A stretch of 64,000 nucleotides of DNA from contig CANGUG010000010.1 in the NCBI GenBank assembly GCA_947457075.1, positions 23,177 to 87,176 on the forward strand. Direction: 5' to 3'. Position 1 is the first letter of the stretch. Every line of letters starts with the position of its first letter. Shown here piece by piece: positions 14,842-41,732 of this stretch. A program made the position numbers and the translations under genes. Under the pieces are notes generated by a model. It made no database searches. It was not told the DNA's origin and saw nothing but the letters and a program-made list of their open reading frames with translations. The DNA is from Bacteroidota bacterium. Lineage in GTDB: Bacteria > Bacteroidota > Bacteroidia > Chitinophagales > Chitinophagaceae.

Positions 14842-14884
14842 AATGTAATTGACTTCAAATGTAAATATAGATCATTTATTATAA

Positions 14885-14900: not shown

Positions 14901-14943
14901 AAGTTGGCAGTGATTGATGCGTACTTTTAATCAAATATCAACT

Positions 14944-15341: not shown

Positions 15342-15370
15342 ATGCAATATTAAGTAATTTGCAATTTGAT

Positions 15371-15970
15371 ATGAGCCCTCATCGCTACTTTTTAGTAAAT
15401 AAACCATTTAACATGGTATCTCAATTTGTGAGTAGCCATGATGTGCGTTTGTTGGGAGATTTACATTTTAACTTTCCTATTGGAACACATGCTATTGGAA
15501 GATTGGATCAAAATTCTGAGGGTTTATTATTATTAACTACGAATAAAAAAATCACTAAACTTCTTTTTCAGGGCCCCATTCCGCATAAACGTACTTATTT
15601 AGTGCAGGTAAAGAATACGATGACCGAAAGTACTGCTAAAAAGCTCGCAGAAGGTATTGAGATTAGTGCAAAAAATGGAACTCGTTTTTCTACTACTCCT
15701 TGTGAAGTGGCCATTGTACAAAAACCAAAAGGACTTTTTGAAATGGGTAAACCTTTGCATGAGAAGGTCGTTACCAGTTGGGTAAAGATTACTTTAACAG
15801 AAGGTAAGTTTCATCAGGTACGAAAAATGGTCGCTGCCGTGAATCACAAATGCATTCGACTTATTCGAATTGCCATTGAAAATGTTCAACTTGGCCAAAT
15901 GCAGCCGGGCGAAGTGATTGAAATAGAAGAGGAAAATTTTTTTCGTGATTTGAAATTAACCTTAGAATAA
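15371..15970 (+). CDS. RNA pseudouridine synthase (RsuA/RluE family)
   Basis: NKPFNMVSQF, GRLDQNSEGLLLLT (catalytic Asp), LTEGKFHQVRKM, RLIRIAI. Confidence 0.9.
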   Translation: MSPHRYFLVNKPFNMVSQFVSSHDVRLLGDLHFNFPIGTHAIGRLDQNSEGLLLLTTNKKITKLLFQGPIPHKRTYLVQVKNTMTESTAKKLAEGIEISAKNGTRFSTTPCEVAIVQKPKGLFEMGKPLHEKVVTSWVKITLTEGKFHQVRKMVAAVNHKCIRLIRIAIENVQLGQMQPGEVIEIEEENFFRDLKLTLE

Positions 15971-15991
15971 TTGATATGGCAGCTAAAAAAA

Positions 15992-20401: not shown

Positions 20402-20420
20402 TTTGTTAATAATGAATTTT

Positions 20421-21809: not shown

Positions 21810-21845
21810 TTCTAACTGAATGATTTAACTAAGTTTAACAACTTA

Positions 21846-21889
21846 AAAAATGCCCTCATGAAGTTTAACTTCTGGGGGCATTTTTATTT
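21846..21889 (+). terminator. Rho-independent terminator after susD
   Basis: AAAAATGCCCTCA(t)GAAGT-tta-ACTTCTGGGGGCATTTTT hairpin followed by a T-rich tail. Confidence 0.8.
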
Positions 21890-21933
21890 CAGGTCCATTT
21901 TTGTTTTTGAAGTACTTTTCCTATCTTAACACT

Positions 21934-23268
21934 ATGCAGGAAACAAAAAAACAATTGGGATTGTGGACGAGTACTTCATTGGTCGTTGGCAATATGATTG
22001 GTGCAGGTGTATTTATGATGCCTGCTACTTTGTCCAGCTTTGGAGGCATAAGTTTAATTGGATGGGTTTGTGCTGCGATTGGGGCATTTTTAATTGCAAA
22101 AGTATTTGCGCATTTATCTAAATTATTGCCCGCTGCCGACGGCGGACCCTATGCGTATTCACAAAAAGGATTAGGTGATTTTGCCGGCTTTCTAGTAGCC
22201 TGGGGTTATTTGGTTTCTGTATGGTGCACCAATGCCGCTATTACGGTTTCCTTTATCAGCGCAATGAGTACTTTTATTCCCAGTTTGGCAACTAATTCCA
22301 TTTTAGCAGTGGCTACAGGACTAGGCACCATTTGGTTTTTATCTTGGATAAATTCCTTAGGTATTTTAACCTCAGGCATCCTTCAATTAGTCACTACCAT
22401 TTTAAAAATTGTCCCCATTGTTTTAATTGGGGTTGTTGGATTATTTTATATTCAATGGAATAATTTTTTACCTTTTAATTCCAGCGGTACTTCCTCCATT
22501 GCTGCTATTACAGCAACAACCACCTTAACGTTTTTCGCTTTCCTTGGCATTGAATGTGCAACCATTCCTTCGGGCAGTGTGGCAAATTCTGCAGCTACTG
22601 TTGCCAAAGCTACTACTTTGGGCACCCTCATTGCAACAGTTGTATATATTTTAAGTACGGTAAGCATTATGGGGATGATCCCAGCTGCTGCTCTAAAACA
22701 AAGTGTCACTCCCTTTGCCGATGCAGCGGTTATTATTTGGGGAGCGAGTGCAAAATATTGGGTAAGTGCAGGGGTAGCTATATCCGCATTTGGTGCCCTC
22801 AACGGGTACATTTTAATCCAAGGACAAATGCCTTATGCCATTGCCAAAGACAAGTTATTTCCCGCTATTTTTACCCGTAAAAATAACAAAGGTGTTCCTG
22901 TATTTGGGATTGTGATTTCTAGCATTTTTGTTTCTGTATTTATGGCCATGAATTATACCAAAGGATTAGTGGCTCAGTTTCAGTTTTTAATTTTATTGAC
23001 AACTTCAACTATTTTAATTCCTTATATATTTTGCACTGCTTCCTATTTATTATTAAGATTAAAGGGATCATTGCCTTCCAACGCAGTATTTAACGGTGCA
23101 ATATTATTAGCAAGTTTGGCATTTGTTTTTTGCATGTGGATCACTATAGGCTTAGGATATGAAACCGTATTCTGGGGCTTTGTACTTACCATGTCCTCGG
23201 TGCCAATTTATGTTTTTGCGGTTTGGAAAAGAGATCAAAAAACCAATAAGGATAATCAACTACTTTAG
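21934..23268 (+). CDS. APC-superfamily amino acid permease (PotE/CadB/ArcD-like)
   Basis: GNMIGAGVFMMP, GGPYAY, FAFLGIECAT and about 12 TM segments. The ATG at 21934 is preferred. Confidence 0.9.
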   Translation: MQETKKQLGLWTSTSLVVGNMIGAGVFMMPATLSSFGGISLIGWVCAAIGAFLIAKVFAHLSKLLPAADGGPYAYSQKGLGDFAGFLVAWGYLVSVWCTNAAITVSFISAMSTFIPSLATNSILAVATGLGTIWFLSWINSLGILTSGILQLVTTILKIVPIVLIGVVGLFYIQWNNFLPFNSSGTSSIAAITATTTLTFFAFLGIECATIPSGSVANSAATVAKATTLGTLIATVVYILSTVSIMGMIPAAALKQSVTPFADAAVIIWGASAKYWVSAGVAISAFGALNGYILIQGQMPYAIAKDKLFPAIFTRKNNKGVPVFGIVISSIFVSVFMAMNYTKGLVAQFQFLILLTTSTILIPYIFCTASYLLLRLKGSLPSNAVFNGAILLASLAFVFCMWITIGLGYETVFWGFVLTMSSVPIYVFAVWKRDQKTNKDNQLL

Positions 23269-23341
23269 ATTTTTGTATTTTAACAGCCGATATATTTTAA
23301 ACACAACTACGAATCAATAATACTAAGTAATATAATCCACC

Positions 23342-24211
23342 ATGAGCGCACATTCTGAATCAGGAAAATTAAAATCGGTTTTTATCAAAAAAGCAGCTGC
23401 TGCATTTATTGATGAGGCACATGTTTCAAAACATTGGGAAGCCCTTAATTATTTGGGTAAACCTGTTATTGAAAAAGCATTGGAAGAGTATGAGGCATTT
23501 GAAAAAATTTTAAAAGACAATGGGGCAGAAGTTTTGTATTTTCCTCAGGAGGATAGTGTAAATATGGATTCAATTTATTGTAGAGATGCAGCTATTGCCA
23601 CCAGTAAAGGAATGATTATTTGCAATATGGGCAAAGCAGGTCGAGTGAATGAACCAGTTGTTCAACAACACGCTTTTGAAGCCAATGGCATTCCTGTACT
23701 AGGGATGATCACTGCACCAGGTACTTTAGAAGGAGGTGATGTAGCCTGGCTAGATGAGAAAACATTGGCAGTGGGCCATACCTATCGAACCAATGAAGAA
23801 GGAATAAGGCAATTAACTGCATTCGTTTCACCATTAGGCGTAACAGTTATATCCGTGCCTATGCCCCATTACAAAGGGCCTTCGGACGTGTTTCATTTAA
23901 TGTCGGTATTGAGTCCAGTAGATAGTAATTTAGCAGTGGTGTATTCTCCCTTAATTCCAATTGTATTTAGAAACGAATTAATTGCACGCGGTTATGAATT
24001 AGTAGAAGTGCCTGATGCGGAGTTTGATAGCATGGGGTGCAATGTTTTAGCATTATCACCGCGAGTATGTTTAATGGTAAAGGGTAATCCAATCACCAAA
24101 GACAGGTTAGAAAAAGCAGGTTGTAAAGTAATTGAATATGAAGGCGAAGAAATTAGCGTTAAAGGAGGAGGAGGACCTACTTGTTTAACAAGACCGCTTA
24201 TGCGTGATTAA
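23342..24211 (+). CDS. Amidinotransferase-fold enzyme (dimethylarginine dimethylaminohydrolase / arginine deiminase family)
   Basis: ESGKLKSV, IYCRD, LEGGDV, catalytic His in FHLMS and catalytic Cys in GGGPTCLTRP. Confidence 0.85.
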   Translation: MSAHSESGKLKSVFIKKAAAAFIDEAHVSKHWEALNYLGKPVIEKALEEYEAFEKILKDNGAEVLYFPQEDSVNMDSIYCRDAAIATSKGMIICNMGKAGRVNEPVVQQHAFEANGIPVLGMITAPGTLEGGDVAWLDEKTLAVGHTYRTNEEGIRQLTAFVSPLGVTVISVPMPHYKGPSDVFHLMSVLSPVDSNLAVVYSPLIPIVFRNELIARGYELVEVPDAEFDSMGCNVLALSPRVCLMVKGNPITKDRLEKAGCKVIEYEGEEISVKGGGGPTCLTRPLMRD

Positions 24212-27070: not shown

Positions 27071-27240
27071 TAGCAAATGCATATTGGAGCAGATAAAGTC
27101 ACTAGTCCTGTAAATACAGCTTATTGAATAGCATTTTCATCCATTTTAAGCGTCAACAATTGACTTTGCTTTGGGCTTAAAAACTGCTTTTAAAATACTG
27201 ATTATCAAATACTTATTTTTTTGATTGCATTTGTTACTAA

Positions 27241-27295
27241 GTTAATTTAAAGTTAATATTAAGTTCATATTCAGGTAACAATTTGGTAACATTAG
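27241..27295 (+). repeat. Five 11-bp-phased direct repeats (Pho-box/OmpR-type operator-like)
   Basis: GTTAATTTAAA GTTAATATTAA GTTCATATTCA GGTAACAATTT GGTAACATTAG, contiguous, about 35 nt upstream of the TonB receptor start. Confidence 0.65.
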
Positions 27296-27329
27296 TGTCT
27301 AATATTTGCGGTATAAACAACTCTATATC

Positions 27330-30089
27330 GTGAAAAGGCTATCCATACTATTTACATTCGTTTTATCTGCTTTACTAGTTCAAGCTCAAAAAGCAAAATT
27401 ATCAGGGAAGATTACCAATTCAAAAAATGAAGCACTAATTTCAGTTACAGTTTCTTTGAAAGGGGAAAAAACAATAGTGACTAAATCGGATGTGGAAGGA
27501 AGATATAGTTTCAATATTGATGTCAATAAAAATTACACTTTAGTATTAAGTTATGTAGGATACAAGGAATCAACCATCGCTAATATAAAAGCGACAAGTG
27601 ACAAAGAAGAGATTATAAAAGATGTTTTGTTAGAGGAAGCAGGTAACAAATTAACGGACGTAGTAGTTAGTACCTCAAGAGCAAATAATAAAGGTGAAAC
27701 TGCTAGTGCATTAATTGCTTATCAGAAAAATACCAATACAGTGGCTTCTGTTATTTCAGCTGAAAGTATTAAAAGAAGTCCAGATAGAAATACAGCTGAA
27801 ATTTTAAAAAGAACTCCCGGTGCTTCTATACAAGAAGGTAAATATATTGTTGTAAGAGGATTAGCAGATAGATATAATCAAGCCATGCTGAATGGAATTT
27901 TATTGACAAGTACAGAGCCTGATCGTAAAACTTTTTCTTTTGATTTATTTCCTTCACAAATCATTGATAATATCATTATTAATAAAGCATTTGTTCCTGA
28001 ATTGCCAGGAGAATGGGCTGGTGGTTTAATTCAAGTAAATACCAAAGACATTCCAACAAAAAACTTTTTCAATATTCAATTGTCAACAAGTTATAACGCT
28101 ATTACTACGGGCAAAGATTTTTACAAAGACAAAGGAGGTAAAACAGATTGGTATGGTATTGACGATGGTACAAGATCATTGCCAGCTGGATATACTACTA
28201 AGTCTAATTTTGACACTACTAATATTGCTGCTAAAACTGCCTTGGGTAAAACTATGGCTAATAACTGGGTCCCAGTTAAAACTACAGCAGCCCCCAATTT
28301 TGCATTACAAATGAATGGCGGATTTACGGGTACTTTATTTGGTAAAAAAGTGGGGGGAATGTTAGGTGCTAACTTTGCAAGAAACCAAAGATTTCAAAAT
28401 AATTTAAATCAGCAAAACACGCTTGAAGGAAATACTTTCTCAACTATTTACAAATATGCCGATGAAAAGTACATTCAAGACATTAATATGGGTGCTATTG
28501 CCGGCTTGTCTATGTACTTAAATCCATTGAATAAAATAAGCTATAAAGCCATTTTAAATGTAAAGTCAAGTAACGCCTTTACTTCAAGAACTGGTAATGA
28601 ATATACAAGAGATGATTTGATGAAGGGTAATGAATTTAATTTTACTCAAAATACTTTTTTCACCAATCAACTAAACGGTGAACATAGCTTGTCTCCTAAA
28701 TTGAAGTTTAATTGGTATGGTGCATTTAATATTTTAGACAGCTATAGTCCTGATCAAAGAAGAATTTTATATACTAAATCTACAACTGGTAATGATCCTT
28801 ATGTATTGAATATATCTAATACTTTATCTCAACAATCAGGAAGTAGAATTTTTCAAAACTTGAGCGATTATATCTATACAGCAGGTGGAGACATCTCCTA
28901 TAAAATTGGACAACAAACTATTAAAGCGGGTTATATTTTACAAATCAAGGATCGTTTGTATGATGCCAAATTATTTGCCAATTTCTTACCAAAAGACAAC
29001 CCTGCATTAAGAGCTTTAGCTCCAGATGTGGTTTTTGCTCCTGAAAATTTTGGTAATGGAACAGATAATAAATTTGGATTTGATGCCATTAAAGGAAGAA
29101 ATTTCAGGTACATGGCCAACACCATTTTGAATGGAGGATATGTGCAATTTGACAATAAATTAAGCGAAAAGTTAAGAGCAGTTTGGGGTATACGTGTGGA
29201 GGATTTCGATCAGTTAGTAGGTAGCGCAAATAAATACGATCCAAGACATACTTTATCAAGGGTTACCGACTTTCTACCTGGTTTGAATACAACTTATAAG
29301 ATTACGCAAAATAGTAATTTAAGACTTACCGCATCTCAAACAGTCATTAGACCAGAATTAAGAGAACTCTCTTTCTTGAACATCTTTGATTTTGAATTAA
29401 ATGCTTCTGTACAAGGTAACCCGTCTTTAAAAAGAACAAAAATCACCAATACGGATTTAAGGTATGAATTATATCCAGGTTCTGGTGAAGTATTTACGGT
29501 TGGTGTATTTTATAAGGACTTTGTAAACCCTATCGAACAAATATTTAGTGAAGGCGCAGGTGGATCAAGTACTTTCTCTTTCCAAAATGCCAAGAAAGCC
29601 ACTACCTATGGAATGGAAATTGAAGCAAGAAAAAAATTAAATAAATTTTTCACTTTCCAAGCCAATGCTTCTTTGATTAACAGTAGAATAAAAGACGAAA
29701 GTTTAAACATAAACAGACAATTACAAGGACAGTCCCCTTATTTAATGAACCTTGGCTTACTATATGATATAGTAGATAAAGGGTTCAATGCAACTTTATT
29801 ATTTAATCAAATTGGAGAGCGTATATACTTAGTGGGAGACATGCAAGCAGGTTCAGCCTCCCCCAATATATATGAAGCACCAAGGGCATTGGTTGATTTT
29901 CAAATGAGCAAAAAAATAATGAACAATAAAGCTGAAATTAAACTAACAGCTTCAGACATCTTAAACCAAACACAAGTTTTTTATCAAAACGTATCCACTA
30001 ATCTTAAATATGAAAAAGGAATTGATGCAGTTCGTTTTTCTAGAAGATTCGGTGCTACTTATGGAATATCATTTAATTACGCTTTATAA
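27330..30089 (+). CDS. TonB-dependent receptor (non-SusC type)
   Basis: Signal peptide, carboxypeptidase-regulatory-like domain, plug SAESIKRSPDRNTAEILKR.PG...VVRGLADRYN, FAGEW-like PGEWAGG, GNPSLK, and C-terminal YGISFNYAL. GTG at 27330 is preferred to TTG at 27306. Confidence 0.9.
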   Translation: MKRLSILFTFVLSALLVQAQKAKLSGKITNSKNEALISVTVSLKGEKTIVTKSDVEGRYSFNIDVNKNYTLVLSYVGYKESTIANIKATSDKEEIIKDVLLEEAGNKLTDVVVSTSRANNKGETASALIAYQKNTNTVASVISAESIKRSPDRNTAEILKRTPGASIQEGKYIVVRGLADRYNQAMLNGILLTSTEPDRKTFSFDLFPSQIIDNIIINKAFVPELPGEWAGGLIQVNTKDIPTKNFFNIQLSTSYNAITTGKDFYKDKGGKTDWYGIDDGTRSLPAGYTTKSNFDTTNIAAKTALGKTMANNWVPVKTTAAPNFALQMNGGFTGTLFGKKVGGMLGANFARNQRFQNNLNQQNTLEGNTFSTIYKYADEKYIQDINMGAIAGLSMYLNPLNKISYKAILNVKSSNAFTSRTGNEYTRDDLMKGNEFNFTQNTFFTNQLNGEHSLSPKLKFNWYGAFNILDSYSPDQRRILYTKSTTGNDPYVLNISNTLSQQSGSRIFQNLSDYIYTAGGDISYKIGQQTIKAGYILQIKDRLYDAKLFANFLPKDNPALRALAPDVVFAPENFGNGTDNKFGFDAIKGRNFRYMANTILNGGYVQFDNKLSEKLRAVWGIRVEDFDQLVGSANKYDPRHTLSRVTDFLPGLNTTYKITQNSNLRLTASQTVIRPELRELSFLNIFDFELNASVQGNPSLKRTKITNTDLRYELYPGSGEVFTVGVFYKDFVNPIEQIFSEGAGGSSTFSFQNAKKATTYGMEIEARKKLNKFFTFQANASLINSRIKDESLNINRQLQGQSPYLMNLGLLYDIVDKGFNATLLFNQIGERIYLVGDMQAGSASPNIYEAPRALVDFQMSKKIMNNKAEIKLTASDILNQTQVFYQNVSTNLKYEKGIDAVRFSRRFGATYGISFNYAL

Positions 30090-30127
30090 TATCATTCAAC
30101 AACAAATCTTTTTTAAATACAAAAACA

Positions 30128-31636
30128 ATGAAACAATTATTTATTTTATCATTAGCCTTTTTAGCTGTAACTGGCTGTAGAAAAGTGGAAGCAGACGGTG
30201 AAAAGCAAATCGTTATTATTAATGCCGGTGGTACTGGTAACACAAGTCCAACTGCCAATACAGTGACTTTAAAGGGAAGAATCACAAAAGACACTACGTT
30301 ATTAGCAAAAGATATCAACTTCTTGTCTGGTATTGTGTATATCACTAAAGGAGTTACACTTACTGTTGAAGCTGGTGCCACAGTTAAAGGGCAGTTTTCT
30401 GGTGCGGATGTTTCTGCTTTAGTAATTTGCCGTGGAGCCAAAATTATAGCTAAAGGAACTGTTGACAAGCCAATTATATTTACTTCGGCCTCTGCCAATC
30501 CACAATCAGGCGATTGGGGTGGTATTGTATTGTGCGGAACTGCTCCAATTAATACAACTTTCACAGTGAACGGCGCTGCGGTAAATGGATTATACCAAGT
30601 TGAAGGAGGTGTTGATAATGCAAATGGTGACGGATTAGCGGGTGCAGGTGATGCTGCATTCCCAACTGTTAACCCTGCGGATAATTCGGGAATTTTACAA
30701 TATGTAAGAATTGAATATGCTGGATATGCTTATCAACCAGATAAAGAAATTAATAGTTTAACGATGGCTGCAGTAGGTAGTGGTACAACTATTGAATATG
30801 TTGAAGCTGCTTTTGGTAAAGACGATAGTTTTGAGTGGTTTGGTGGTACAGTGAACTGCAAATATTTAATTTCTTACAAAGGTCAGGATGATGATTTTGA
30901 CTCGGACAATGGCTATAGTGGTAATGTACAATTTGGTATTGTAATCCGTGATTCTGCGATTGCAGATATTTCTAAATCAGAAGCATTTGAATCTGACAAT
31001 AACCCAACTGGTACTACTGCCTCTCCAAAAACAAATGCTGTATTTTCAAATTTTACGCTTATTGGGCCAAGAGCAACATTAACTAATATTGGCAATAGCT
31101 TGTACCTAGCGGGTGCTCAAATTAGAAGAAACTCTGGTATTTCTATTCAAAATTCAATATTCATGGGATGGCCAATTGGTTTGTTAATTGATGCTAGTAC
31201 TGGTACTCCTACTGATTTAAATATAGTAGATAGTACTATTCGATTTAAAAATAATACTTTCGCAGGCAATAACATTAATGTAAAATATACAGTAAGTGCT
31301 AGTGCTCCAACTGGTGCTACTGATGCGAGTATGTTGGCTTGGGTGTCAACTCCGTTTTATAGAAATGCCATTGCATTGAATGCAGTGGATGCAAAGTTGA
31401 TTCAGCCATTTAACTATACCATGTTTGATGCAACTCCTTATGCAGGTTCAGCTGCACCCACTGGTATTAATTTAGTATTAGGAACTGCTGCTAATTTCAA
31501 CTATGCAAGCAATGGCTCTTTTGATGATGCTAAATTACAAAACCCTTACTTCAAGCCAGTTACTTTTAGAGGTGCTATTGGTTTAAATGGGGTGGATGCT
31601 ACTTGGTGGAAAGGTTGGGCTAAATTTAACTACTAA
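30128..31636 (+). CDS. Uncharacterised surface lipoprotein, probable parallel beta-helix, Asp-rich
   Basis: Lipobox VTGC, GDWGGIVLCG, YVRIEYAG, DKEINSLT, DDSFEWFGG, QDDDFDSDNG and AFESDN; cotranscribed with the TonB receptor. Confidence 0.75.
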   Translation: MKQLFILSLAFLAVTGCRKVEADGEKQIVIINAGGTGNTSPTANTVTLKGRITKDTTLLAKDINFLSGIVYITKGVTLTVEAGATVKGQFSGADVSALVICRGAKIIAKGTVDKPIIFTSASANPQSGDWGGIVLCGTAPINTTFTVNGAAVNGLYQVEGGVDNANGDGLAGAGDAAFPTVNPADNSGILQYVRIEYAGYAYQPDKEINSLTMAAVGSGTTIEYVEAAFGKDDSFEWFGGTVNCKYLISYKGQDDDFDSDNGYSGNVQFGIVIRDSAIADISKSEAFESDNNPTGTTASPKTNAVFSNFTLIGPRATLTNIGNSLYLAGAQIRRNSGISIQNSIFMGWPIGLLIDASTGTPTDLNIVDSTIRFKNNTFAGNNINVKYTVSASAPTGATDASMLAWVSTPFYRNAIALNAVDAKLIQPFNYTMFDATPYAGSAAPTGINLVLGTAANFNYASNGSFDDAKLQNPYFKPVTFRGAIGLNGVDATWWKGWAKFNY

Positions 31637-31657
31637 TTTATAAAGTGGCTACTTTAT

Positions 31658-31690
31658 AAAAAAAGAGGTTCATTTTGAACCTCTTTTTTT
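31658..31690 (+). terminator. Rho-independent (bidirectional-looking) terminator
   Basis: AAAAAAAGAGGTTCA-ttt-TGAACCTCTTTTTTT. Confidence 0.85.
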
Positions 31691-31759
31691 ATGCACGCTT
31701 AACAATTTCGTAATATCAACTGAATGTTAAGTCCGAATTTTTTTTATGAATATTTGTAT

Positions 31760-32215
31760 ATGTCATTGAACGATATTTTATATACTTACAGGGAAGCCGA
31801 CAAAGAAGATTGGCCTATTTTTTATGACGCCTATTTGAGTAATGCTGCTATACCAATAAATAAAATAAGATTCAAAGATATATTTGAAAATTACTTGCTT
31901 GATCGTTTAATGTTAGTTTTTATTTTTGAAAAAGAAGCTACTAAAAGTATAGTGGGAGGTACAATACTTAAAAAATCGAATGAATTATTTAATGAAAACA
32001 GTTTTGTTGAAATTCAACATTTGCATATTTTATCAAAGTACAGAAGATTAAATGCAGCAACACAATTGTATGCTTTTATTGAAGAGATTGCCAAAGACAA
32101 TAAGGCTACTAAAATTATGGTTTCCTGTAATCTTAATTCAACTTTAAATCAACGATTTTATTTAAGGAATAAGTTTGTTTTTTCTAAAAAAATATATCAG
32201 AAAAATATAGAGTAA
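31760..32215 (+). CDS. GNAT family N-acetyltransferase
   Basis: YREADKED, EIQHLHILSKYRRLNAATQL and FYLRNKF. The ATG at 31760 is preferred. Confidence 0.7.
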   Translation: MSLNDILYTYREADKEDWPIFYDAYLSNAAIPINKIRFKDIFENYLLDRLMLVFIFEKEATKSIVGGTILKKSNELFNENSFVEIQHLHILSKYRRLNAATQLYAFIEEIAKDNKATKIMVSCNLNSTLNQRFYLRNKFVFSKKIYQKNIE

Positions 32216-32280
32216 CTACAATTGCTCAAATTTATTACAAGCCGCCTTTATTTTTGGAATAGACGCATTTTGATCTTCAT

Positions 32281-33165
32281 CTAAGCTTCCTTAATAACTA
32301 AGTCGTACAAATGATGAATTAATCCATCAGCCAGCCCAATTTTAGGCACTAAAACCTGTTCAACATTACACCACTTAAATATATTTGTATAAATTTCAAG
32401 TGCTGGTGCAATTACTTCTGCCCTATCTTTTTTAATGTTGTATTTTTTCATACGCTCTTCAATATTCAACTGCAGCATATCTCTATACATGTCTTTAACT
32501 GCAGTTGATTGGAGGTATTTATCGTCTTTTGACCTTAGTAGTGAAAAAATTTTATTAATATTCCCCCCTGATCCAATACCAATAATTGGCGCATAATTTT
32601 TAGCAATCATTTTGCAAGTATCTTTCAATTCCTCCCAGGCTTCATTAGTCACTTTATTGGTAAGTAAACGGACTGTGCCTATATTAACTGATTTTTGTAG
32701 TACCAACTCATTATTGCGATAGAGCGTTAGTTCAGTGCTTCCGCCACCCACATCCATATACAAGTAACTATCCTTGTTGTCTAGTAGTTCAGCAATATGA
32801 TTTTCGTAAATTATTTCAGCTTCTAGTTCACCAGAAATAATTTCAATTTCAATGCTAGTTTCGTCCTCTATTTCTTTAATTATTTCTTTGCTATTTTGGG
32901 CATCCCTCATAGCACTTGTGGCACAAGCCATATAATGCTCCACCTCATATACTTTCATTAACTGCTTGTATGCTTTTATAGTGTCAATGAGCATTTTTCG
33001 CTTGCGACTACCTATAAATCCTTTTTCAAACACGTCAAATCCCAATTGTAAAGGAATTCGAACAATATTTATTCGATTGAATGTTACTTCTTTGCCTTTT
33101 TGTTCAACTTCGCTAATTAAAAGCCTTGCTGCGTTACTTCCAATATCGATGGCTGCTAAAATCAA
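32281..33165 (-). CDS. ppx: Exopolyphosphatase (Ppx/GppA family)
   Basis: AAIDIGSNAARL, ATSAMRDA, ISGELEA, DVGGGSTE, GSGGNIN, GLADG. Confidence 0.93.
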   Translation of the reverse strand: MILAAIDIGSNAARLLISEVEQKGKEVTFNRINIVRIPLQLGFDVFEKGFIGSRKRKMLIDTIKAYKQLMKVYEVEHYMACATSAMRDAQNSKEIIKEIEDETSIEIEIISGELEAEIIYENHIAELLDNKDSYLYMDVGGGSTELTLYRNNELVLQKSVNIGTVRLLTNKVTNEAWEELKDTCKMIAKNYAPIIGIGSGGNINKIFSLLRSKDDKYLQSTAVKDMYRDMLQLNIEERMKKYNIKKDRAEVIAPALEIYTNIFKWCNVEQVLVPKIGLADGLIHHLYDLVIKEA

Positions 33166-33169
33166 TTTG

Positions 33170-35233
33170 TTATTTTTTACCTTTTAAGTATAAATAGGTA
33201 GCTTCTTGCGACTTATATTTTTTACCTATCAAAGGTACATATTTATTGGCCAAATCTGAATCAAGGATCCTGGCTTTTTGATTGTCTTTTAATTGAATAT
33301 TAATAATGTCAATTAATTCTTTTTTTATAATAGGGTCGAAAATAGGCGTTGCAACTTCAATTCGATGGTCTAAATTACGCACCATCCAATCGGCACTGGA
33401 AATATACACTTTCTCTTTTCCTTTATTATGGAATATCATTACCCTAGCGTGTTCTAAATATTGATCCACAATACTAATGGCATTTAGTTTTTGATTTCCT
33501 TTTTCATTATTGTATTTCAATGTAAGAATTCCCCTAATAATTAAATGAACTTCTACATTTGCCTTAATTGCTTTGTATAAGTGCTCAATAAGAGTTATAT
33601 CAGTTAAAGCGTTAAGTTTAATAATGATTTTTGCTTGCTTACCCTGCTTTGCGATTTTTATTTCGTTCTCAATTAATTGCATTATTGAATTTCTCATATT
33701 AATCGGCGAAATCAATAAGTGTTGCATTTTGACAATTGGCTTATCCCCTTGCTGCCAGTTTTCTAAATAAGTAAATATCCTAGTAGATTCATTCATTAAT
33801 TGTGCATTGGCAGTAAGCAAACAATGATCTGCATAAACTTTAGCAGTTTTTTCATTTAAATTGCCAGTACTTATAAATCCATATTTAATAATTTTTCCAG
33901 CAACTCTTTTTTGAATAATACAAAGTTTTGCATGTACTTTTTTGTTGGGCACGCCCACTAATACATTAACTCCTTCCTCTTCTAATATCGATTTCCATTC
34001 TAGATTTGCTTCCTCGTCAAAACGTGCTTTTAATTCTAAGAAAACCGTTACCAATTTTCCATTTCTTGCCGCATTAATTAAGGCATTAATTACTTTAGAA
34101 TTGCTTGCTAAACGATAGGCTGTAATTTTTATGCTTATAACATGGTCATCCATTGCAGCTTCTCTTAACATATCAATGATTGGATCATAGGAATGATAAG
34201 GAAAATGTAACATAACGTCCTTTTCAAGCAGTATATCCGAAACAAGCTCCTTTTTTTTAAATGCGGGGTGGATTAAAGGACTAGGTCTTGTATTTTTTAT
34301 AGGGATGATGTTGGGGAAGTCCATAAAATGCCTAAAATTATGTATATGCCCACCAGGGATCATGCTACTTTTCCTAGAAAGCTTTAATTTTTTAATCAAA
34401 AATTCAAGCATCTCAGCATTCATTTCTTTTTCATAGACAAATCGAACAGGTTTACCCTTGCGTCTATTTTTGATACCTTTTGAAATTTTATCTATAAAAT
34501 TGGCACCTACTTCTTGGTCTAAGTCAATTTCTGCGTCTTTTGTTATTTTAAATACATGCGCATCGAATTTATTAAATTTAAAGTGGGAGAATATAATCGG
34601 TAAATTATACCTAATTAAATCTTCTAGTAAAATAATACTTGATGATCCTGGTTTTGAAGGCAATAAAATAAACCGACCAATAGATTTAGAAGGAATTTCT
34701 ATTAAAGAAAATTTTTGATCATAGGCATTTGATTTATTGGCCATTACAATAGCTAAGTATAAACTTTTGTCCCTTAAATAAGGAAGCTCTGGGACATTTT
34801 CAATCATTAAGGGAATAATATAAGGACGTACCACTTCATCAAAGTAATTCTTAATAAAAGTTTTTTGTTCGAGATTCAATTTTTTATCATCAACCAATAA
34901 AATTTTATTTTCCTTTAACTCCTTATTTAAATTTTGCCATATTCTGTTAAATTCATTCTGCTGTCTTAAAACAATTCTTTGAATTTCATCCAAAATAGCC
35001 TGAGGAGTTTCAATTAAATCAATATTTTGAATATGTCCTTTTTTATCTGTGTATTCAGTCATTCTTTTCAAAGTGGCAACGCGCACCCTGAAAAATTCAT
35101 CTAAATTATTTGAAAAAATACCTAAAAACTTAATTCTTTCATTTAATGGAACTGATGGGTCGTTGGCTTCTTGTAAAACGCGCCCATTAAAACTTAACCA
35201 ACTAATATCTCTAGCAATAAATCTGTCTTTCAT
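33170..35233 (-). CDS. ppk1: Polyphosphate kinase 1
   Basis: RDISWLSFNGRVLQEA, SNNLDEFFRVRVA, HFPYHSY, ELKARFDEEAN, KVHAK, STGNLNE.TA..YAD, EHAR, SADWMVRNLDHRIEV. Confidence 0.97.
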   Translation of the reverse strand: MKDRFIARDISWLSFNGRVLQEANDPSVPLNERIKFLGIFSNNLDEFFRVRVATLKRMTEYTDKKGHIQNIDLIETPQAILDEIQRIVLRQQNEFNRIWQNLNKELKENKILLVDDKKLNLEQKTFIKNYFDEVVRPYIIPLMIENVPELPYLRDKSLYLAIVMANKSNAYDQKFSLIEIPSKSIGRFILLPSKPGSSSIILLEDLIRYNLPIIFSHFKFNKFDAHVFKITKDAEIDLDQEVGANFIDKISKGIKNRRKGKPVRFVYEKEMNAEMLEFLIKKLKLSRKSSMIPGGHIHNFRHFMDFPNIIPIKNTRPSPLIHPAFKKKELVSDILLEKDVMLHFPYHSYDPIIDMLREAAMDDHVISIKITAYRLASNSKVINALINAARNGKLVTVFLELKARFDEEANLEWKSILEEEGVNVLVGVPNKKVHAKLCIIQKRVAGKIIKYGFISTGNLNEKTAKVYADHCLLTANAQLMNESTRIFTYLENWQQGDKPIVKMQHLLISPINMRNSIMQLIENEIKIAKQGKQAKIIIKLNALTDITLIEHLYKAIKANVEVHLIIRGILTLKYNNEKGNQKLNAISIVDQYLEHARVMIFHNKGKEKVYISSADWMVRNLDHRIEVATPIFDPIIKKELIDIINIQLKDNQKARILDSDLANKYVPLIGKKYKSQEATYLYLKGKK

Positions 35234-35368
35234 ATATAACTATTTCATCACGAATTTATTATTACTATCATAAGTTACAACAAAGCTATAATAAGTTAAT
35301 AATTTATTAATAATTAGGAAATAATAAGGACATATACATTAACGTATTTTACTAAAACTACTTACCCG

Positions 35369-36211
35369 ATGGAAAAACGTTATATTGAAGTATGCGTAAT
35401 CAGTGACGTTCATTTGGGCACTTTTGGATGTCAAGCAAAAGAGGTTTTGAACTACTTAAGAAGTATTCAGCCTAAAACATTGATTCTTAATGGGGATATT
35501 ATTGATATTTGGCAGTTTAGCAAACGCTTTTTCCCTGCTAGTCACATGGCGGTCATAAAAGAGATTTTTAATATGGCCAGTAAAGGCACTAAAGTGGTTT
35601 ATATTACAGGAAACCATGACGAAGCTTTACGCAAATACGCCGATTTTGAAATGGGCAATATTTTACTTACTGATAAAATTGTATTTGAGATAAATGGTGA
35701 AAAAAATTGGGTTTTTCATGGAGATGTATTTGATAGAACCACAAAGGGAAGTGCTAAAATATTGGCTAAATTAGGTGGTTACGGTTATGATTTACTGATT
35801 ATATTGAATAGCTTATTTAACTGGATTTCAAGGTTGTTTGGACGTGAGAAAATGAGTTTTAGTAAAAAGGTTAAAAATGGGGTAAAACAAGCGGTTTCTT
35901 GGATTGGCAATTTTGAACAAACAGCAGCAGAGTTAGCCATTGAAAACGGCTATCAATATGTTATTTGTGGACATATCCATCAACCTCAGCTGCGCGTTAT
36001 TTCAACAGATAGGGGAACTGTTACTTATTTAAATAGTGGTGATTGGATCGAGAATTCAACTTCTTTAGAATATTATGATAACGCTTGGCATTTATATCAT
36101 TATAATCCAAAACAGTTTGAACATGTTTCAAAAGAAAAAATTAAAGTGGTGCATTTAAATACTGAATTAAATGTCATGACTAGTGAGGTTGCATTTCAGG
36201 TTTCACTATAA
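35369..36211 (+). CDS. plcP: Metallophosphoesterase of the LpxH-like family, most similar in motif pattern to PlcP phospholipase C
   Basis: ISDVHLGTFGCQA, GDIID, GNHDE, HGDVFD, LGGYGYD, KKVK.AV..I..FE, ICGHIH, YLNSGDWIE. Confidence 0.72.
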   Translation: MEKRYIEVCVISDVHLGTFGCQAKEVLNYLRSIQPKTLILNGDIIDIWQFSKRFFPASHMAVIKEIFNMASKGTKVVYITGNHDEALRKYADFEMGNILLTDKIVFEINGEKNWVFHGDVFDRTTKGSAKILAKLGGYGYDLLIILNSLFNWISRLFGREKMSFSKKVKNGVKQAVSWIGNFEQTAAELAIENGYQYVICGHIHQPQLRVISTDRGTVTYLNSGDWIENSTSLEYYDNAWHLYHYNPKQFEHVSKEKIKVVHLNTELNVMTSEVAFQVSL

Positions 36212-36217
36212 GTATAT

Positions 36218-37234
36218 ATGAAAATATTTTATGCAATACAAGGTACAGGGAATGGTCATATTAGTAGGGCTATTGAATTGTATCCGTATTTAAAAAAATA
36301 TGGCCAAGTTGACTTCATGTTAAGTGGGAGTAATGCAAATTTGCCAAGTAGTTTGCCAGTGAAATATAAGAGTAAGGGGCTGAGTTTATTTTATAAACAT
36401 AGTGGGGGACTTGATTATATTAAAATTTTACGCTCATTATCGCTAAGTGTCATTAAAGATGCAAAAAAATTGCCCTTAGAGGAGTATGACTTAGTCATTA
36501 ACGATTTTGATTTTGTTACTTCTTTAGCATGTAAGTTTAAAAAAATACCAAGCATACACTTTGGGCATCAAGCAAGTTTTCAAAGTAAAAAAACACCAAG
36601 ACCCTCTAAAATAGATTTTTTAGGAAATTTGATACTTGAAAAATTTGTTGAAAGCGACAGCCATATAGGACTTCATTTTGAAAATTATGATCATCATATT
36701 TACAATCCTATTATTAAGGAAGATATTATTAAGGCAACCCCTATAAACGACGGTCATATCACCGTATATCTGCCTCAATACTCAATGCAATACTTAGAGC
36801 CACATTTTTTAAAACAAAATAAATTTCATTTTGAAGTTTTTTCAAAAGAAATTGACCGAATTACTTGCAAGAAAAATATCACCTATTTCCCCATTAATAA
36901 TGAACAGTTTACAAGTAGCTTAATTCGGTGCTATGGAATTATCACTGCCGGCGGATTCGAAACACCTGCCGAAGCCATGTATATGAATAAAAAGCTATTA
37001 AGCATTCCTATCTTAAATCATTATGAACAAGCTTGCAATGCACAGGCACTTGAAAAATTGGGGGTTATGGTATTAAAGAAGATAGATGAAAAATTTGAAC
37101 AATATTTTAAAGAGTGGATTAATGAGAAAAAACCTATTAAGTTAAATTTAGCACATAGTACGGCTGATATTGTAGAAATGCTCATGAAAACCAAACAAAC
37201 CAATAAACCCAATAAATATGTATACCATTCTTAA
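36218..37234 (+). CDS. GT-B glycosyltransferase, MJ1255/VC2487-like (GT28 C-terminal-like)
   Basis: MKIFYAIQGTGNGHISRA, INDFDF.T, TAGGFETPAEA...KKLL.IP...HYEQ.CNA.AL. Confidence 0.8.
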   Translation: MKIFYAIQGTGNGHISRAIELYPYLKKYGQVDFMLSGSNANLPSSLPVKYKSKGLSLFYKHSGGLDYIKILRSLSLSVIKDAKKLPLEEYDLVINDFDFVTSLACKFKKIPSIHFGHQASFQSKKTPRPSKIDFLGNLILEKFVESDSHIGLHFENYDHHIYNPIIKEDIIKATPINDGHITVYLPQYSMQYLEPHFLKQNKFHFEVFSKEIDRITCKKNITYFPINNEQFTSSLIRCYGIITAGGFETPAEAMYMNKKLLSIPILNHYEQACNAQALEKLGVMVLKKIDEKFEQYFKEWINEKKPIKLNLAHSTADIVEMLMKTKQTNKPNKYVYHS

Positions 37235-37562
37235 TCAAAAAGGGGAGGCAGTTGCTTATATTCAAAATAGGATGATTGTAGATCTTTCTGGGGAAACAGT
37301 GTTGGGTATTTTAATTGGCGATTGTTTCTTTGGAAGAAAAAATAAAGTTATTGGAAAAATTTTCAATAAAACCGCTTATTTGGTAAATGGAGAAATTGTA
37401 GGTAAAATCATTAATAATGAAACCTATAAAAATGTAGCATTAAAAAAATCCCAAATGCAGGCTGCATGGGACATTTTGACTAATATTAAAGAACATACAA
37501 GTACATGGATTATTGAAACGAATAAATGGGCAGAGAATCCCTTGTTGTTTCACTTACTGTAA
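37218..37562 (+). CDS. Hypothetical protein with repeated short beta/Gly units (4-fold beta-flower-like)
   Basis: Repeating G-x(2-3)-hydrophobic units (KGEAVAYI, SGETVLG, NKVIGKI, NGEIVGKI); overlaps the glycosyltransferase stop by 17 nt. Confidence 0.45.
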   Translation: MYTILNQKGEAVAYIQNRMIVDLSGETVLGILIGDCFFGRKNKVIGKIFNKTAYLVNGEIVGKIINNETYKNVALKKSQMQAAWDILTNIKEHTSTWIIETNKWAENPLLFHLL

Positions 37563-37568: not shown

Positions 37569-38000
37569 TTATTGCAGGACTTGATTCAAATCATTTTCTT
37601 TCAAAAATGTTATACAATAACCCTTAATCATTTCTCGAACCTGCTTAAATGATTCCATAATTTCTGCTTCTGAACCAGTTGCTTTAGCAGGGTCGGGAAA
37701 ATTATAATGATATTTTACTGCCTTTGTTGGAAAATAAGGACATCGTTCCTTTGCATTGTCACAAACGGTAATCACATAATCAAAATCAATTGCAAAGTAC
37801 TCGCTAATATTATTAGAAGTGTGGTTGGAAATATCAATACCATCTTCCTTCATGATGTGAATGGCTCTTGGATTTACACCATGCGTTTCCACGCCTGCCG
37901 AATATACATTTGCTATTCCCTTTGTCATTGCTGCTAAATAACCATGTGCTATTTGACTTCGGCAACTATTGCCAGTGCACAATACTAGAATATTTTTCAT
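37569..38000 (-). CDS. arsC: Arsenate reductase, thioredoxin-coupled (LMW-PTP fold)
   Basis: LCTGNSCRSQ P-loop, VCDNAKERCP redox Cys pair, DPA; in an operon with arsR and arsM. Confidence 0.9.
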   Translation of the reverse strand: MKNILVLCTGNSCRSQIAHGYLAAMTKGIANVYSAGVETHGVNPRAIHIMKEDGIDISNHTSNNISEYFAIDFDYVITVCDNAKERCPYFPTKAVKYHYNFPDPAKATGSEAEIMESFKQVREMIKGYCITFLKENDLNQVLQ

Positions 38001-38055
38001 GCCTACAAAATATTTATATCTTTTTTATGTTACTAATTTGTCAGAATAAACATCA

Positions 38056-38895
38056 TTAACAACAACCTCCTCCAGGAGTACAAGTATTTAAAGGTTTTTC
38101 TGCATATACGGTTACTGAAAAAATACCTAAGTCTGATTGGTTAAAATTAATAATATCAGTTTCTGATAAATAGTTTTTCAAAATATCATTCGGGATAACA
38201 ATAGGCTTTTCTTTTTGTAACACCACATTCTTAAATCCACAAGCATTTATTAATTCTAAATAAACTTCTTTTTGTATCGCGCCACTTACACAACCAGCGT
38301 ACATTTCTGCAGCATTGCGTAATTCATTTGGTAAAGTGCCAACTAGTACAACATCAGAAATGCTAAAATGACCACCAGGCTTCAATACACGATAAATATC
38401 AGAGAGAACTGCATGTTTATTGGGTACTAAATTTAAAACACAGTTACTTACAACCACATCCGCTGCATTGTCTGTGATTGGCATATTTTCGATATCACCT
38501 TGTCTAAATTCTACATTATTAAAACCCATTTTTTCGGCATTCGCTCTTGCTTTATCAATCATTGCTGGTGTGAAGTCTATGCCAATTACCTTGCCGCTTG
38601 TGCCGGTGCTTCTTCTTGCCACAAAGCAATCATTGCCTGCTCCCGATCCTAAATCCACCACCACATCACCCTCTTTTATTTTGGCAAATTCAGTGGGTAA
38701 TCCACATCCCAAACCCAAGTCGGCATCTGCCATATATCCATCCATTTTTGTATAATCGTCGGACATGATATTGTAAACCTCGGTACTACATCCACCTGCA
38801 CCACAACAAGAGGACATATTGGTTTCTTTGTCTTGCAATGCAATTTCACTGTATTTTGCTTTTACAATTTCTTTTAATTCTAATTCAGTTTTCAT
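38056..38895 (-). CDS. arsM: Arsenite S-adenosylmethionine methyltransferase
   Basis: SSCCG, LGLGCGLP, VDLGSGAG.DCF, SNCVLNL and YAGCVSGA carry the conserved ArsM cysteines. Confidence 0.92.
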   Translation of the reverse strand: MKTELELKEIVKAKYSEIALQDKETNMSSCCGAGGCSTEVYNIMSDDYTKMDGYMADADLGLGCGLPTEFAKIKEGDVVVDLGSGAGNDCFVARRSTGTSGKVIGIDFTPAMIDKARANAEKMGFNNVEFRQGDIENMPITDNAADVVVSNCVLNLVPNKHAVLSDIYRVLKPGGHFSISDVVLVGTLPNELRNAAEMYAGCVSGAIQKEVYLELINACGFKNVVLQKEKPIVIPNDILKNYLSETDIINFNQSDLGIFSVTVYAEKPLNTCTPGGGCC

Positions 38896-38918
38896 AAATA
38901 TTTATTTTAGTATTTTTA

Positions 38919-39233
38919 TTAACAACATTTTTTTGCAATCATAATTGAGTCAAACATTTTATTAAATAGTACACTCATTTTTGACCAATTAGTTTCATCT
39001 ATACAATAACATGTTTTCACACCGTCAATTTCACCTTTAATTATACCGGCTTCCTTTAATTCTTTTAAATGTTGAGATACAGTACTTTGTGACAGGGGTA
39101 ATTCATCTACAATATCACCACATATGCAAGTTTGCTTCTTTAATAATAAAGAAATAATAGCTACTCTTGCTGGGTGACCTAACGCTTTTGCGAATTGCGC
39201 CAACTGCGCTTCTTTGTTTGTATAAGTAGACAT
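38919..39233 (-). CDS. arsR: ArsR/SmtB family transcriptional repressor
   Basis: [32 protein letters not shown] and C-terminal CC. Confidence 0.92.
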
Positions 39234-40638: not shown

Positions 40639-41097
40639 ATGAGTTTAGATGCTATTGATATGACCATTTTGCGCATTTTGCAACAAAATGCACTTGCCAA
40701 AATTAAAGACATTAGTGCTGCAGTGAATTTGTCCATGAGCCCCACCCATGATAGAATTAAGCGTTTAGAATCAGAAGGGTATATTCAGGCTTATGTTGGC
40801 ATTGTAGATAGAAAAAAAATGGAACTTGGTTTAATCGTACACTGTCATGTGACTTTGGATAAACAAACGAGAAATAATTTTTCTGAGTTTGAGCAAATCA
40901 TTGCCCAATACCCCGAAGTAATTTCATGTAGTTTAGTATCCGGCAACTTTGATTATTTTTTGAAATTAGTATCAAAGGACGTGGAGTCCTATAATAAATT
41001 TTATCAAGAAAAACTTGCAGTACTTCCCATGGTGGCCCATATTAATAGTTTGTTTGTAATGGATGAAATAAAAACGACCACCGCATTACCATTGTAA
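40639..41097 (+). CDS. Lrp/AsnC family regulator (AldR-like), divergent from ald
   Basis: LDAIDMTILRILQ, HTH LSMSPTHDRIKRLE..GYI, and RAM domain VSGNFDY.LK. Confidence 0.9.
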   Translation: MSLDAIDMTILRILQQNALAKIKDISAAVNLSMSPTHDRIKRLESEGYIQAYVGIVDRKKMELGLIVHCHVTLDKQTRNNFSEFEQIIAQYPEVISCSLVSGNFDYFLKLVSKDVESYNKFYQEKLAVLPMVAHINSLFVMDEIKTTTALPL

Positions 41098-41108
41098 ATT
41101 TTATAAGT

Positions 41109-41732
41109 ATGTACGATATACCTCATTTCAAAGCTAACCATCACCAGGAAGTCATTGACTTTATGCAAGCTCATCCATTTGTAACGATTTGCGGGGTTGA
41201 TGCCAATGGCTTGCCTGTTGCTACCCATATTCCAGTGCTCATTAAAATAGAAAACGAAATTATTACCATTCGTGGGCATATCATGCGTAAACAGGATCAT
41301 ACTATTGCTTTTGAAAACAATAACAATGTGTTGGTTATTTTTTCGGCACCCTCCGCTTTTGTGAGTGCAAATTGGTACACCACAAAAAATATGGGAAGCA
41401 CTTGGAATTACCAAACAGTGCATGCCCGAGGCAAAATGGAAATCAAAGATGAACAACATTTACGCAACTTACTTACCGAGCTCACATTACATTTTGAGAA
41501 AGATCCCGATGCACCTACTCAGGTAAAAAATTTATCCAACGAATACATGGAGCAAAATATGAAAGCCATTTATTCCTTTGATATTGTGGTGCAAGATTTA
41601 CAACATGTATTTAAATTAAGTCAAAATAGAGACGAGGCCTCTCATGCGAATATTCAAGCTGAATTAAACAAAGGAGATGCTGCTTGCAAGTATATGGCTG
41701 CTGCTATGAAAAATAGCAATAAAAACAGCTAA
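41109..41732 (+). CDS. paiB: PaiB family FMN-binding protein (split barrel)
   Basis: MYDIPHF, HPFVT, ATHIP, YVS-like FVSANWY, TWNYQTVHARG, FKLSQNR. Confidence 0.82.
   Translation: MYDIPHFKANHHQEVIDFMQAHPFVTICGVDANGLPVATHIPVLIKIENEIITIRGHIMRKQDHTIAFENNNNVLVIFSAPSAFVSANWYTTKNMGSTWNYQTVHARGKMEIKDEQHLRNLLTELTLHFEKDPDAPTQVKNLSNEYMEQNMKAIYSFDIVVQDLQHVFKLSQNRDEASHANIQAELNKGDAACKYMAAAMKNSNKNS

Follow-up and report, generated by a model that had tools for sequence, protein, structure and literature searches.

Separately transcribed, predicted phosphate-starvation units probably make up a TonB receptor and polyphosphate gene block in an uncultured freshwater Chitinophagaceae

The closest known counterparts of the locus examined here, a block of phosphate-related genes in an uncultured freshwater Chitinophagaceae, come from Flavobacterium johnsoniae. 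Its 'PUSIII' cluster includes the polyphosphate kinase (PPK)-like Fjoh_3851, the lipoprotein FI (Fjoh_3856) and a receptor (Fjoh_3857) (Lidbury et al. 2021, PMC8115612), and 'PUSIV' (Fjoh_0541–0549) comprises a glycosyltransferase, OprP, PhoR, PhoB, the TonB receptor Fjoh_0545 and the pectin-lyase-fold lipoprotein FII, Fjoh_0546 (PMC8115612). Fjoh_0545 and Fjoh_0546 count among the genes with the strongest induction on depletion of inorganic phosphate (Pi), which also strongly induces the PPK gene in the receptor–lipoprotein cluster, PlcP and the glycosyltransferase; Fjoh_0545 and Fjoh_0546 rise under Fe limitation too, less strongly (log2 4.9 and 6.5, with the supplement columns taken as Pi, N and Fe; PMC8115612). 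A 2023 preprint by Price places Fjoh_0546 and ElpS of Caulobacter crescentus in the BT4055/BT4056 receptor–lid family, which shows conserved proximity in 621 genera and in which the lipoprotein is proposed to be a surface 'lid' (10.1101/2023.03.17.533168). ElpS (CC_0170) is phosphate-starvation-induced, and the receptor CC_0171 was reported to be constitutive (PMC2996285). PlcP–glycosyltransferase operons have been described in Sinorhizobium (SMc00171), Phaeobacter MED193, SAR11 HTCC7211 (plcP–agt) and the flavobacterium Dokdonia MED134, and in Dokdonia plcP is P-induced (Sebastian et al. 2016, PMC4796936).

We analysed positions 27240–37562 of a 64-kb window of chromosomal DNA (around 35% G+C) from this organism. 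A preliminary description, made from the letters alone, had read the block as one co-regulated phosphate module of about 10 kb in a Bacteroidota lineage. Its guess at the lineage was correct, and domain and family searches of the open reading frames (ORFs) recovered every gene that it had named; it had omitted a GNAT gene (31724–32215) and an intrinsic terminator (31655–31693) between the lipoprotein gene and ppx. The single module itself did not survive the terminator, a variable cassette slot, the lack of a ppk1-oriented array and unequal metatranscriptome coverage. We conclude that the region is another Pho-regulon cluster of the 'PUS-like' kind known from Bacteroidota (PUSIII/PUSIV type). 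It varies published loci in an expected way and does not reveal a new mechanism. Probably it consists of phosphate-starvation (Pho regulon) units that are transcribed separately, and is not one operon or island. The block contains at least three or four transcription units, and a strong terminator follows the lipoprotein gene; at least two of the units, the receptor–lipoprotein pair and the plcP–glycosyltransferase–small-gene unit, have a predicted PhoB-type operator in common. Regulation in the source organism is a prediction from sequence and not an experimental result. The features are as follows.

27240–27294, plus strand: Pho-box-like array of five direct 11-bp units, AGTTAATTTAA AGTTAATATTA AGTTCATATTC AGGTAACAATT TGGTAACATTA, with unit scores of 4.8–12.3 bits
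27300–27308, plus strand: putative Bacteroidota-type −7 promoter element TAATATTTG, read from the sequence, 5 nt after the end of the array
27330–30089, plus strand: TonB-dependent receptor with CarbopepD_reg_2, Plug and OMP_b-brl_3 domains; signal peptide MKRLSILFTFVLSALLVQA, followed by Q
30128–31636, plus strand: ElpS/FII/BT4056-type lipoprotein of 502 residues with a predicted beta helix (PF28492 Beta_helix_4), a putative surface 'lid' or receptor-binding partner
31655–31693, plus strand: intrinsic terminator closing the receptor–lipoprotein operon (−20.6 kcal/mol, z −8.7)
31697–31718, plus strand: two weak Pho-box-like units before the GNAT gene, GCTTAACAATT TCGTAATATCA, with a three-unit score of 14.9
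31724–32215, plus strand: GNAT acetyltransferase, with a probable real start at ATG 31760
32281–33165, minus strand: short, putative exopolyphosphatase of the Ppx/GppA family (ppx), 294 residues, 4 nt downstream of ppk1
33170–35233, minus strand: polyphosphate kinase 1 (ppk1) with all four PPK1 domains
35294–35337, plus strand: weaker Pho-box-like four-unit array directed toward plcP, 32 nt before its ATG and 61–104 nt upstream of the divergent ppk1 start
35369–36211, plus strand: PlcP-like (LpxH-related) metallophosphoesterase (PF00149, PF12850)
36218–37234, plus strand: GT-B glycosyltransferase (PF13528; MJ1255/VC2487 family), a candidate glycolipid synthase
37218–37562, plus strand: 114-residue protein of unassigned function, translationally coupled to the glycosyltransferase, whose gene it overlaps by 17 nt

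Compared with PUSIII and PUSIV, the locus has the same succession of a receptor with Plug, CarbopepD_reg_2 and OMP_b-brl_3 domains and a lipoprotein of putative pectin-lyase fold, a likeness of domain set and gene order, and it has a putative lipid-remodelling glycosyltransferase gene and a PPK1 gene in the same neighbourhood. Its Ferruginibacter-like relatives resemble the Flavobacterium clusters further, having an adjacent porin O/P-like gene and a PhoB/PhoR-like pair. Unlike in F. johnsoniae, phoBR, a porin gene and Pit–PhoU are not linked to it in the window of this uncultured freshwater organism, and plcP and the glycosyltransferase gene form one operon, divergent from ppk1–ppx, in a five-gene cassette that occupies a variable slot.

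The array ahead of the receptor gene bears out the 11-bp phased repeats of the preliminary description. It can be read as AAGTTAATTTA, AAGTTAATATT and AAGTTCATATT, followed in phase by cAGGTAACAAT and tTGGTAACATT, and the two-unit pattern AAGTTAA-N4-AAGTTMA has 2 matches against 0.01 expected. A weight matrix (consensus aGKTAAYATTn) was derived from the sequences that precede the orthologous receptor gene in 73 related loci (related loci that were compared carry L numbers below). Scored with it, the best four-unit chain of the array reaches 45.4, whereas 30 Markov shuffles of the window give at most 15.4. Arrays of four to seven units lie 5′ of the orthologous receptor in 67 of the 73 Chitinophagaceae loci, with a median four-unit score of 39.4. 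In these relatives, too, the array abuts a putative −7-like box, the placement expected of a Pho-box promoter; the block TAATATTTGCGGTATAAATA...ATCGTGAAAAGG is kept among close relatives, and a metatranscriptome contig begins at 27332, near the putative −7 element. A scan of the window for sigma-70 promoters and terminators gave a promoter count no better than that of shuffles, and overlooked the real terminator at 31655–31693.

Only receptor promoters went into the training of the matrix, so its matches elsewhere are independent evidence. Across 1.39 Mb of related loci, 100 sites score at least 18: 44 are assigned to receptors, 10 to plcP, 2 to PhoU, 1 to a GNAT gene and 43 are unlabelled, most of the last lying by position 5′ of a receptor and the rest either immediately past the lipoprotein gene, where they precede the following gene, or close to phosphorus-related genes. 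For plcP-like genes (n = 19), the best score in the 150 nt upstream has a median of 17.3, compared with −17.2 for 610 unlabelled control genes, and 79% of the plcP upstream regions exceed the 95th percentile of those controls. The sole site in 20.9 kb of the cultured Panacibacter ginsenosidivorans is a six-unit array directly 5′ of plcP and its glycosyltransferase gene. In relatives the motif also precedes PhoU_div–Pit, a porin O/P-like gene, a PF04185 phosphoesterase gene, a phosphonate operon and a second TonB receptor gene. The last of these, in L004 (17281–20169; 929 residues), follows the cassette directly and has its own four-unit Pho-like array (24.7).

The Bacillus subtilis PhoP box consists of TT(A/T/C)ACA repeats at 11-bp spacing. 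In Riemerella anatipestifer, the phosphate-starvation-induced PhoP has the motif TTTAACA by DNA affinity purification sequencing, and it shifts a TonB-receptor promoter in electrophoretic mobility shift assays (PMC9603813). The Chitinophagaceae arrays resemble both in their direct hexamer core, [G/T]TAACA, their 11-bp period, their four or more units and their position directly upstream of the promoter; they differ in being long, up to seven units. Taken together, these comparisons indicate that the arrays are very probably sites, as predicted, for a regulator of the PhoB/PhoP type. Comparison gives good support to two parts of the preliminary description, its phosphate theme and its interpretation of the repeats as Pho boxes, through the 67 of 73 receptor loci, the plcP, PhoU–Pit, porin, phosphoesterase and phosphonate targets, the Riemerella motif and the Pi-induced gene sets of F. 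johnsoniae.

The receptor gene was delimited mechanically as an ORF at 27306–30089, with GTG 27330 the likely start, since it yields the signal peptide. The protein is 94.5% identical to its ortholog in L003, the nearest genome (the lake metagenome-assembled genome 'Bacteroidetes bacterium ZE-13may13-93', whose lipoprotein is 92% identical), and 86% identical to that in L001; the remaining relatives carry the labels Chitinophagaceae, Sediminibacterium or Ferruginibacter. It is not SusC-type: no SusC-family model is among its NCBIfam matches, of which TIGR01782 (TonB-Xanth-Caul) is the best, and the partner lipoprotein has no SusD domain, so the pair is not SusCD-like in the manner of PusCD. 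The cluster would work like PUSIII/PUSIV and not like PusCD. Receptor and lipoprotein genes form a bicistronic operon that ends in the strong terminator.

The lipoprotein begins with MKQLFILSLAFLAVTG followed by the lipobox cysteine C17 (LAVTG before C17), which is invariant in 16 homologs. The preliminary description had called it Asp-rich; it contains only 6.0% D overall, and what stands out is an invariant acidic cluster, DDxFEWFGG, DDDFDxDNGY and ExFESDN. Searches against local Pfam and NCBIfam copies gave no match, and the label PF28492 Beta_helix_4 comes from a newer, precomputed annotation. The lipoprotein belongs to a very large family (9,840 clusters at 50% identity, E ≤ 1e-3) that spans Bacteroidota and Proteobacteria; the cluster members that were looked up bear solely 'hypothetical protein' labels, with no link to Fjoh_0546, BT4056 or ElpS. 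An AlphaFold model is poor (predicted local distance difference test score 57, from 16 close homologs), and the Foldseek matches obtained with this poor model are, at the top, nearly all right-handed beta-helix enzymes, none at E 1e-3; a sequence search of the PDB with the lipoprotein found nothing. Many relatives are fusion proteins of 1,000–2,400 residues with 2–5 tandem copies of the module, and one, of 4,910 residues, shows 14 matched stretches. The label of a type IX secretion C-terminal sorting domain occurs on at least one cluster member of the family.

The lipoprotein gene lies beside a TonB receptor gene on the same strand in 79 of 82 related loci, and replicons of Pseudoalteromonas and Sphingomonas have the pairing as well. 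The Sphingomonas lipoprotein gene comes before the receptor gene, with type II secretion genes next, just as has been reported around elpS in Caulobacter (PMC2996285), and the protein at the elpS position in Sphingomonas is 33% identical to the window lipoprotein over 299 residues that span the acidic motifs (E 1e-31). With ElpS and BT4056 the locus shares a lipoprotein gene beside a same-strand TonB receptor gene and a link to phosphate starvation, the homology to ElpS running through this Sphingomonas protein and not through CC_0170 itself. The differences are that the receptor gene comes first in the window, whereas the lipoprotein gene does so in Alphaproteobacteria, that no type II secretion system is adjacent in the window, and that in Caulobacter only elpS is induced while the receptor is constitutive; the 'lid' role is a proposal in every one of these systems.

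Between the terminator and ppx, the GNAT gene would form a second unit, PhnO-like and with its own weak box. Sites comparable to this box occur in L007 (17.3) and L009 (18.8). The best NCBIfam match of the protein is PhnO, aminoalkylphosphonate N-acetyltransferase, far below cutoff. In L011 and L012, the lipoprotein gene is followed by an operon with its own array. It encodes a DUF5690 protein, a flavin adenine dinucleotide-dependent oxidoreductase that exceeds the TIGR03364 cutoff with 405 bits, a Phn-HD oxygenase and a PhnX-like hydrolase that both narrowly miss their cutoffs and, as the last gene in L011 and in L012, the GNAT homolog; in L011 it occupies 11939–16145. From these family matches, the operon is predicted to be a phosphonate-catabolism set, and the window GNAT gene may be a remnant of such an operon. 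DUF5690 proteins (about 430 residues) recur beside phosphate genes (L062, 14163–18298; L011, 12062–13336), either after a fusion of a PF04185 phosphoesterase with a beta-propeller or heading the phosphonate operon, and may be inner-membrane transporters for a phosphorus compound.

In the composite that we favour, a response regulator of the PhoB/PhoP family, with its gene elsewhere in the genome, would bind the 11-bp units (core [G/T]TAA[C/T]A) as tandem dimers under phosphate scarcity and activate transcription of the receptor–lipoprotein operon, whose products would capture a phosphorus-containing substrate and import it across the outer membrane. A more specific version is conceivable, although we consider it unlikely: the invariant acidic stripe of the lipoprotein would bind a polyanionic phosphorus polymer through divalent cations and pass it to the receptor, and this importer would be coupled to a mobile ppk1–ppx/plcP–glycosyltransferase cassette, so that a single regulator, through arrays that differ in strength, would tune the import, storage and membrane sparing of phosphorus. 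Candidate substrates would then be polyphosphate, teichoic-acid-like polymers or nucleic-acid fragments; an aminophosphonate conjugate is another, because of the link to the phosphonate operon in relatives.

Gene order among relatives bears directly on whether the block is a unit. In the Sediminibacterium-like clade the backbone runs CLC channel, carbonic anhydrase, receptor, lipoprotein, (GNAT), a variable slot and alanine dehydrogenase. Most genomes have nothing in the slot and some have arsC or arsR–arsM–arsC; it is filled by ppx–ppk1 and the divergent plcP–glycosyltransferase–small-gene unit in the window, L003, L004, L011, L012 and L047; in L080 it holds at least ppx, where the contig ends. 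L001, whose lipoprotein is 88% identical, has no cassette at the slot. In L025, L048, L050, L051 and L082, plcP–glycosyltransferase–small lies instead beyond the carbonic anhydrase gene, about 3.5 kb upstream of it, with a divergent ppk1 detected in L025, L051 and L082; in L056, the glycosyltransferase and small genes stand at a contig end. In the Ferruginibacter-like clade, the receptor–lipoprotein pair is flanked by Pit, PhoU_div, a porin O/P-like gene, a convergent plcP–glycosyltransferase pair, a PF04185 phosphoesterase, DUF5690 and a two-component pair whose best family matches are PhoB and PhoR.

Among full-length loci (n = 40), 24 have at least one such phosphate gene, 14 have plcP and 6 have ppk1 together with plcP. 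This linkage, recurring in different arrangements, argues for functional coupling; the same differences in arrangement identify the 10-kb block as juxtaposed units and not a single heritable module. A survey of neighbourhood conservation, which had been suggested as a check on the module, thus upholds the linkage of phosphate genes and not a fixed gene order or cassette position. That the whole of 27241–37562 forms a single island whose genes are inherited jointly and activated as one module is very unlikely and largely refuted by this synteny. It is true that L003 preserves the block in full, gene by gene, and that L004, L011, L012 and L047 preserve most of it, that DNA contigs from four metagenomes cover all of it at near identity, and that two of its promoters have the motif in common. 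But the strong terminator after the lipoprotein gene and the opposed orientations, with ppk1–ppx on the minus strand, divide it; L001 and most of the Sediminibacterium-like clade have the receptor–lipoprotein pair with no cassette there, five loci carry plcP–glycosyltransferase–small upstream of the carbonic anhydrase gene, a four-gene phosphonate operon splits the two parts in L011 and L012, and RNA coverage is very unequal. At the population level, the metagenome DNA contigs show no clean joint for a cassette deletion, the only deletion variant seen being one of arsM–arsR.

That variant belongs to the flank of the cassette. An operon of arsR, an S-adenosylmethionine-dependent methyltransferase gene (ArsM-like) and a thioredoxin-type arsC at 37569–39233 on the minus strand abuts the five genes, followed by alanine dehydrogenase, and a single metagenome contig skips 38009–39345, which amounts to a form without arsM and arsR. 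The arsenic genes in this slot vary between relatives: they are absent, arsC alone, or all three. Arsenate is an analogue of phosphate, but the 37569–39233 operon showed no Pho-like array.

In the cassette, the identities of the polyphosphate genes are clear for PPK1 (TIGR03705, 688.3 bits against a cutoff of 465.85, with matches to the N-terminal, middle, C1 and C2 Pfam domains), and the ppx product passes the family cutoff of PF02541 (118 bits, 6.6e-34) and stays below that of TIGR03706 (216 bits against 307). Returning to the composite of separate units, the five-gene cassette would be the third unit, in which plcP–glycosyltransferase–small, behind its weaker four-unit array, would swap phospholipids for glycolipids: a phospholipase C activity would free diacylglycerol, which the glycosyltransferase would then glycosylate. 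The ppk1–ppx pair, divergent from the same 135-bp intergenic region, would handle polyphosphate; its regulation is suggested by analogy, from this common intergenic region and from Fjoh_3851, the PPK gene that is induced in F. johnsoniae. The glycosyltransferase gene is always paired with a plcP-like gene, and the 114-residue gene is conserved with the two only in the Sediminibacterium-like clade (11 loci).

The metal-binding motifs of the phosphoesterase are intact (DVH, GDIID, GNHDE and GHIH). The protein could be the housekeeping lipid A enzyme LpxH, the glycosyltransferase then acting on an envelope glycan and the locus having no lipid-remodelling arm; this is how close homologs are annotated (UDP-2,3-diacylglucosamine diphosphatase), and LpxH enzymes are its only solved relatives. 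Yet these structures are remote (E 6e-9, 38.6 bits), its scores against the LpxH equivalog models (55 and 50.6 bits) are far under the cutoffs of 134 and 190, the cassette that contains the gene is dispensable at this locus, its constant partner is a GT-B transferase and not an lpx gene, and Pho-box arrays precede it in both clades. PlcP enzymes, moreover, are themselves LpxH-like metallophosphoesterases, and the P-induced PlcP of F. johnsoniae carries PF12850. We therefore regard the LpxH assignment as very improbable. PlcP-type lipid remodelling is the favoured prediction, on the GT-B partnership, the Pho arrays and the published plcP–glycosyltransferase operons. As in those operons, an LpxH-like metallophosphoesterase gene lies immediately 5′ of a glycosyltransferase gene behind a predicted Pho box, a likeness of context and not of aligned PlcP sequences; unlike in them, the glycosyltransferase belongs to PF13528 and is not an Agt homolog, and the window adds a coupled 114-residue gene and the divergent ppk1–ppx pair.

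Public RNA data show that the receptor operon is strongly and independently expressed in situ, although the contigs do not imply phosphate control. Receptor–lipoprotein sequence is present in 13 public metatranscriptome runs; a single run contains any sequence from the stretch between ppx and the small ORF inclusive. Four runs have transcript contigs that span 27332–31650, ending at about 31614–31650, near the terminator.

Several findings weigh against the composite Pho-regulon interpretation. The gene for the regulator is not in the window, and the response regulators of relatives score under the PhoB equivalog cutoffs (237 against 296; 218 against 270). The plcP array is weak (20.6) and lies in an AT-rich intergenic region in which TTAAT-like words abound; it is nevertheless the second-best array in the 64 kb, and it gains credibility because the site is conserved before plcP in both clades and in Panacibacter. 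No array was found in the orientation of ppk1 (median score −3.0). Public databases call the plcP-like protein LpxH. In run X25, the one with cassette sequence (contigs of at least 97% identity), depth is 8–25 over receptor–lipoprotein, 1.3–2.7 over GNAT, ppx and ppk1 and 0–0.8 over plcP–glycosyltransferase, so that equal co-expression of the receptor operon and the cassette is not seen; contig depth is a crude and poor measure, and strains in the sample may differ in cassette carriage.

TonB receptors are classically iron-regulated. That the repeats serve some other OmpR-family regulator, for iron, oxygen or envelope stress, and lie near phosphate genes by coincidence is nonetheless highly improbable, for although OmpR-family sites are generally 10–11-bp direct repeats, the Riemerella PhoP motif resembles that of Escherichia coli ArcA according to its authors (PMC9603813) and the relatives' response regulators fall short of the PhoB cutoffs, the remaining motif targets are phosphate-specific (plcP, PhoU–Pit, the porin O/P-like gene, the PF04185 phosphoesterase and the phosphonate operon), the adjacent two-component pair best matches PhoB and PhoR, and the F. 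johnsoniae counterparts are induced most strongly, though not exclusively, by Pi depletion (PMC8115612).

Elsewhere in the window, beta-carbonic anhydrase and CLC channel genes form the upstream flank. The preliminary description had found no pstSCAB or phoBR, and there are none among the scanned window ORFs, the three unscanned ORFs of at least 120 residues being 60330–61382, 62298–62843 and the overlapping 41004–41459. An Rfam scan of the window returned zero matches. A MauG-like di-haem cytochrome c peroxidase gene lies at 11825–13048 on the minus strand; in F. johnsoniae a MauG-like gene accompanies phoX. Near the window gene there is neither a PhoX-like ORF nor a Pho-like array, and 13049–14205 has only ORFs of at most 102 residues. 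A SusC/SusD-like pair (17333–21809), followed by an amino-acid permease gene and a gene of the DDAH/arginine-deiminase family (17333–24211 in all), is conserved in L001; the top motif match in 17333–24211 (20534–20577, minus strand, score 14.6) is within the SusD gene and looks like chance.

Receptor–lipoprotein pairs constitute a very large family, strongly induced by low phosphate in Flavobacterium and readily seen in lake metatranscriptomes. What the analysis adds is modest: first, a family-wide, high-information Pho-box model for Chitinophagaceae, which could predict Pho regulons in uncultured freshwater Bacteroidota; second, the finding that in some relatives this receptor family is tied to a phosphonate operon; and third, a ppk1–ppx/plcP–glycosyltransferase–small cassette of variable placement, with evidence that genes for lipid remodelling and polyphosphate travel together in it and recurrently land beside the importer.

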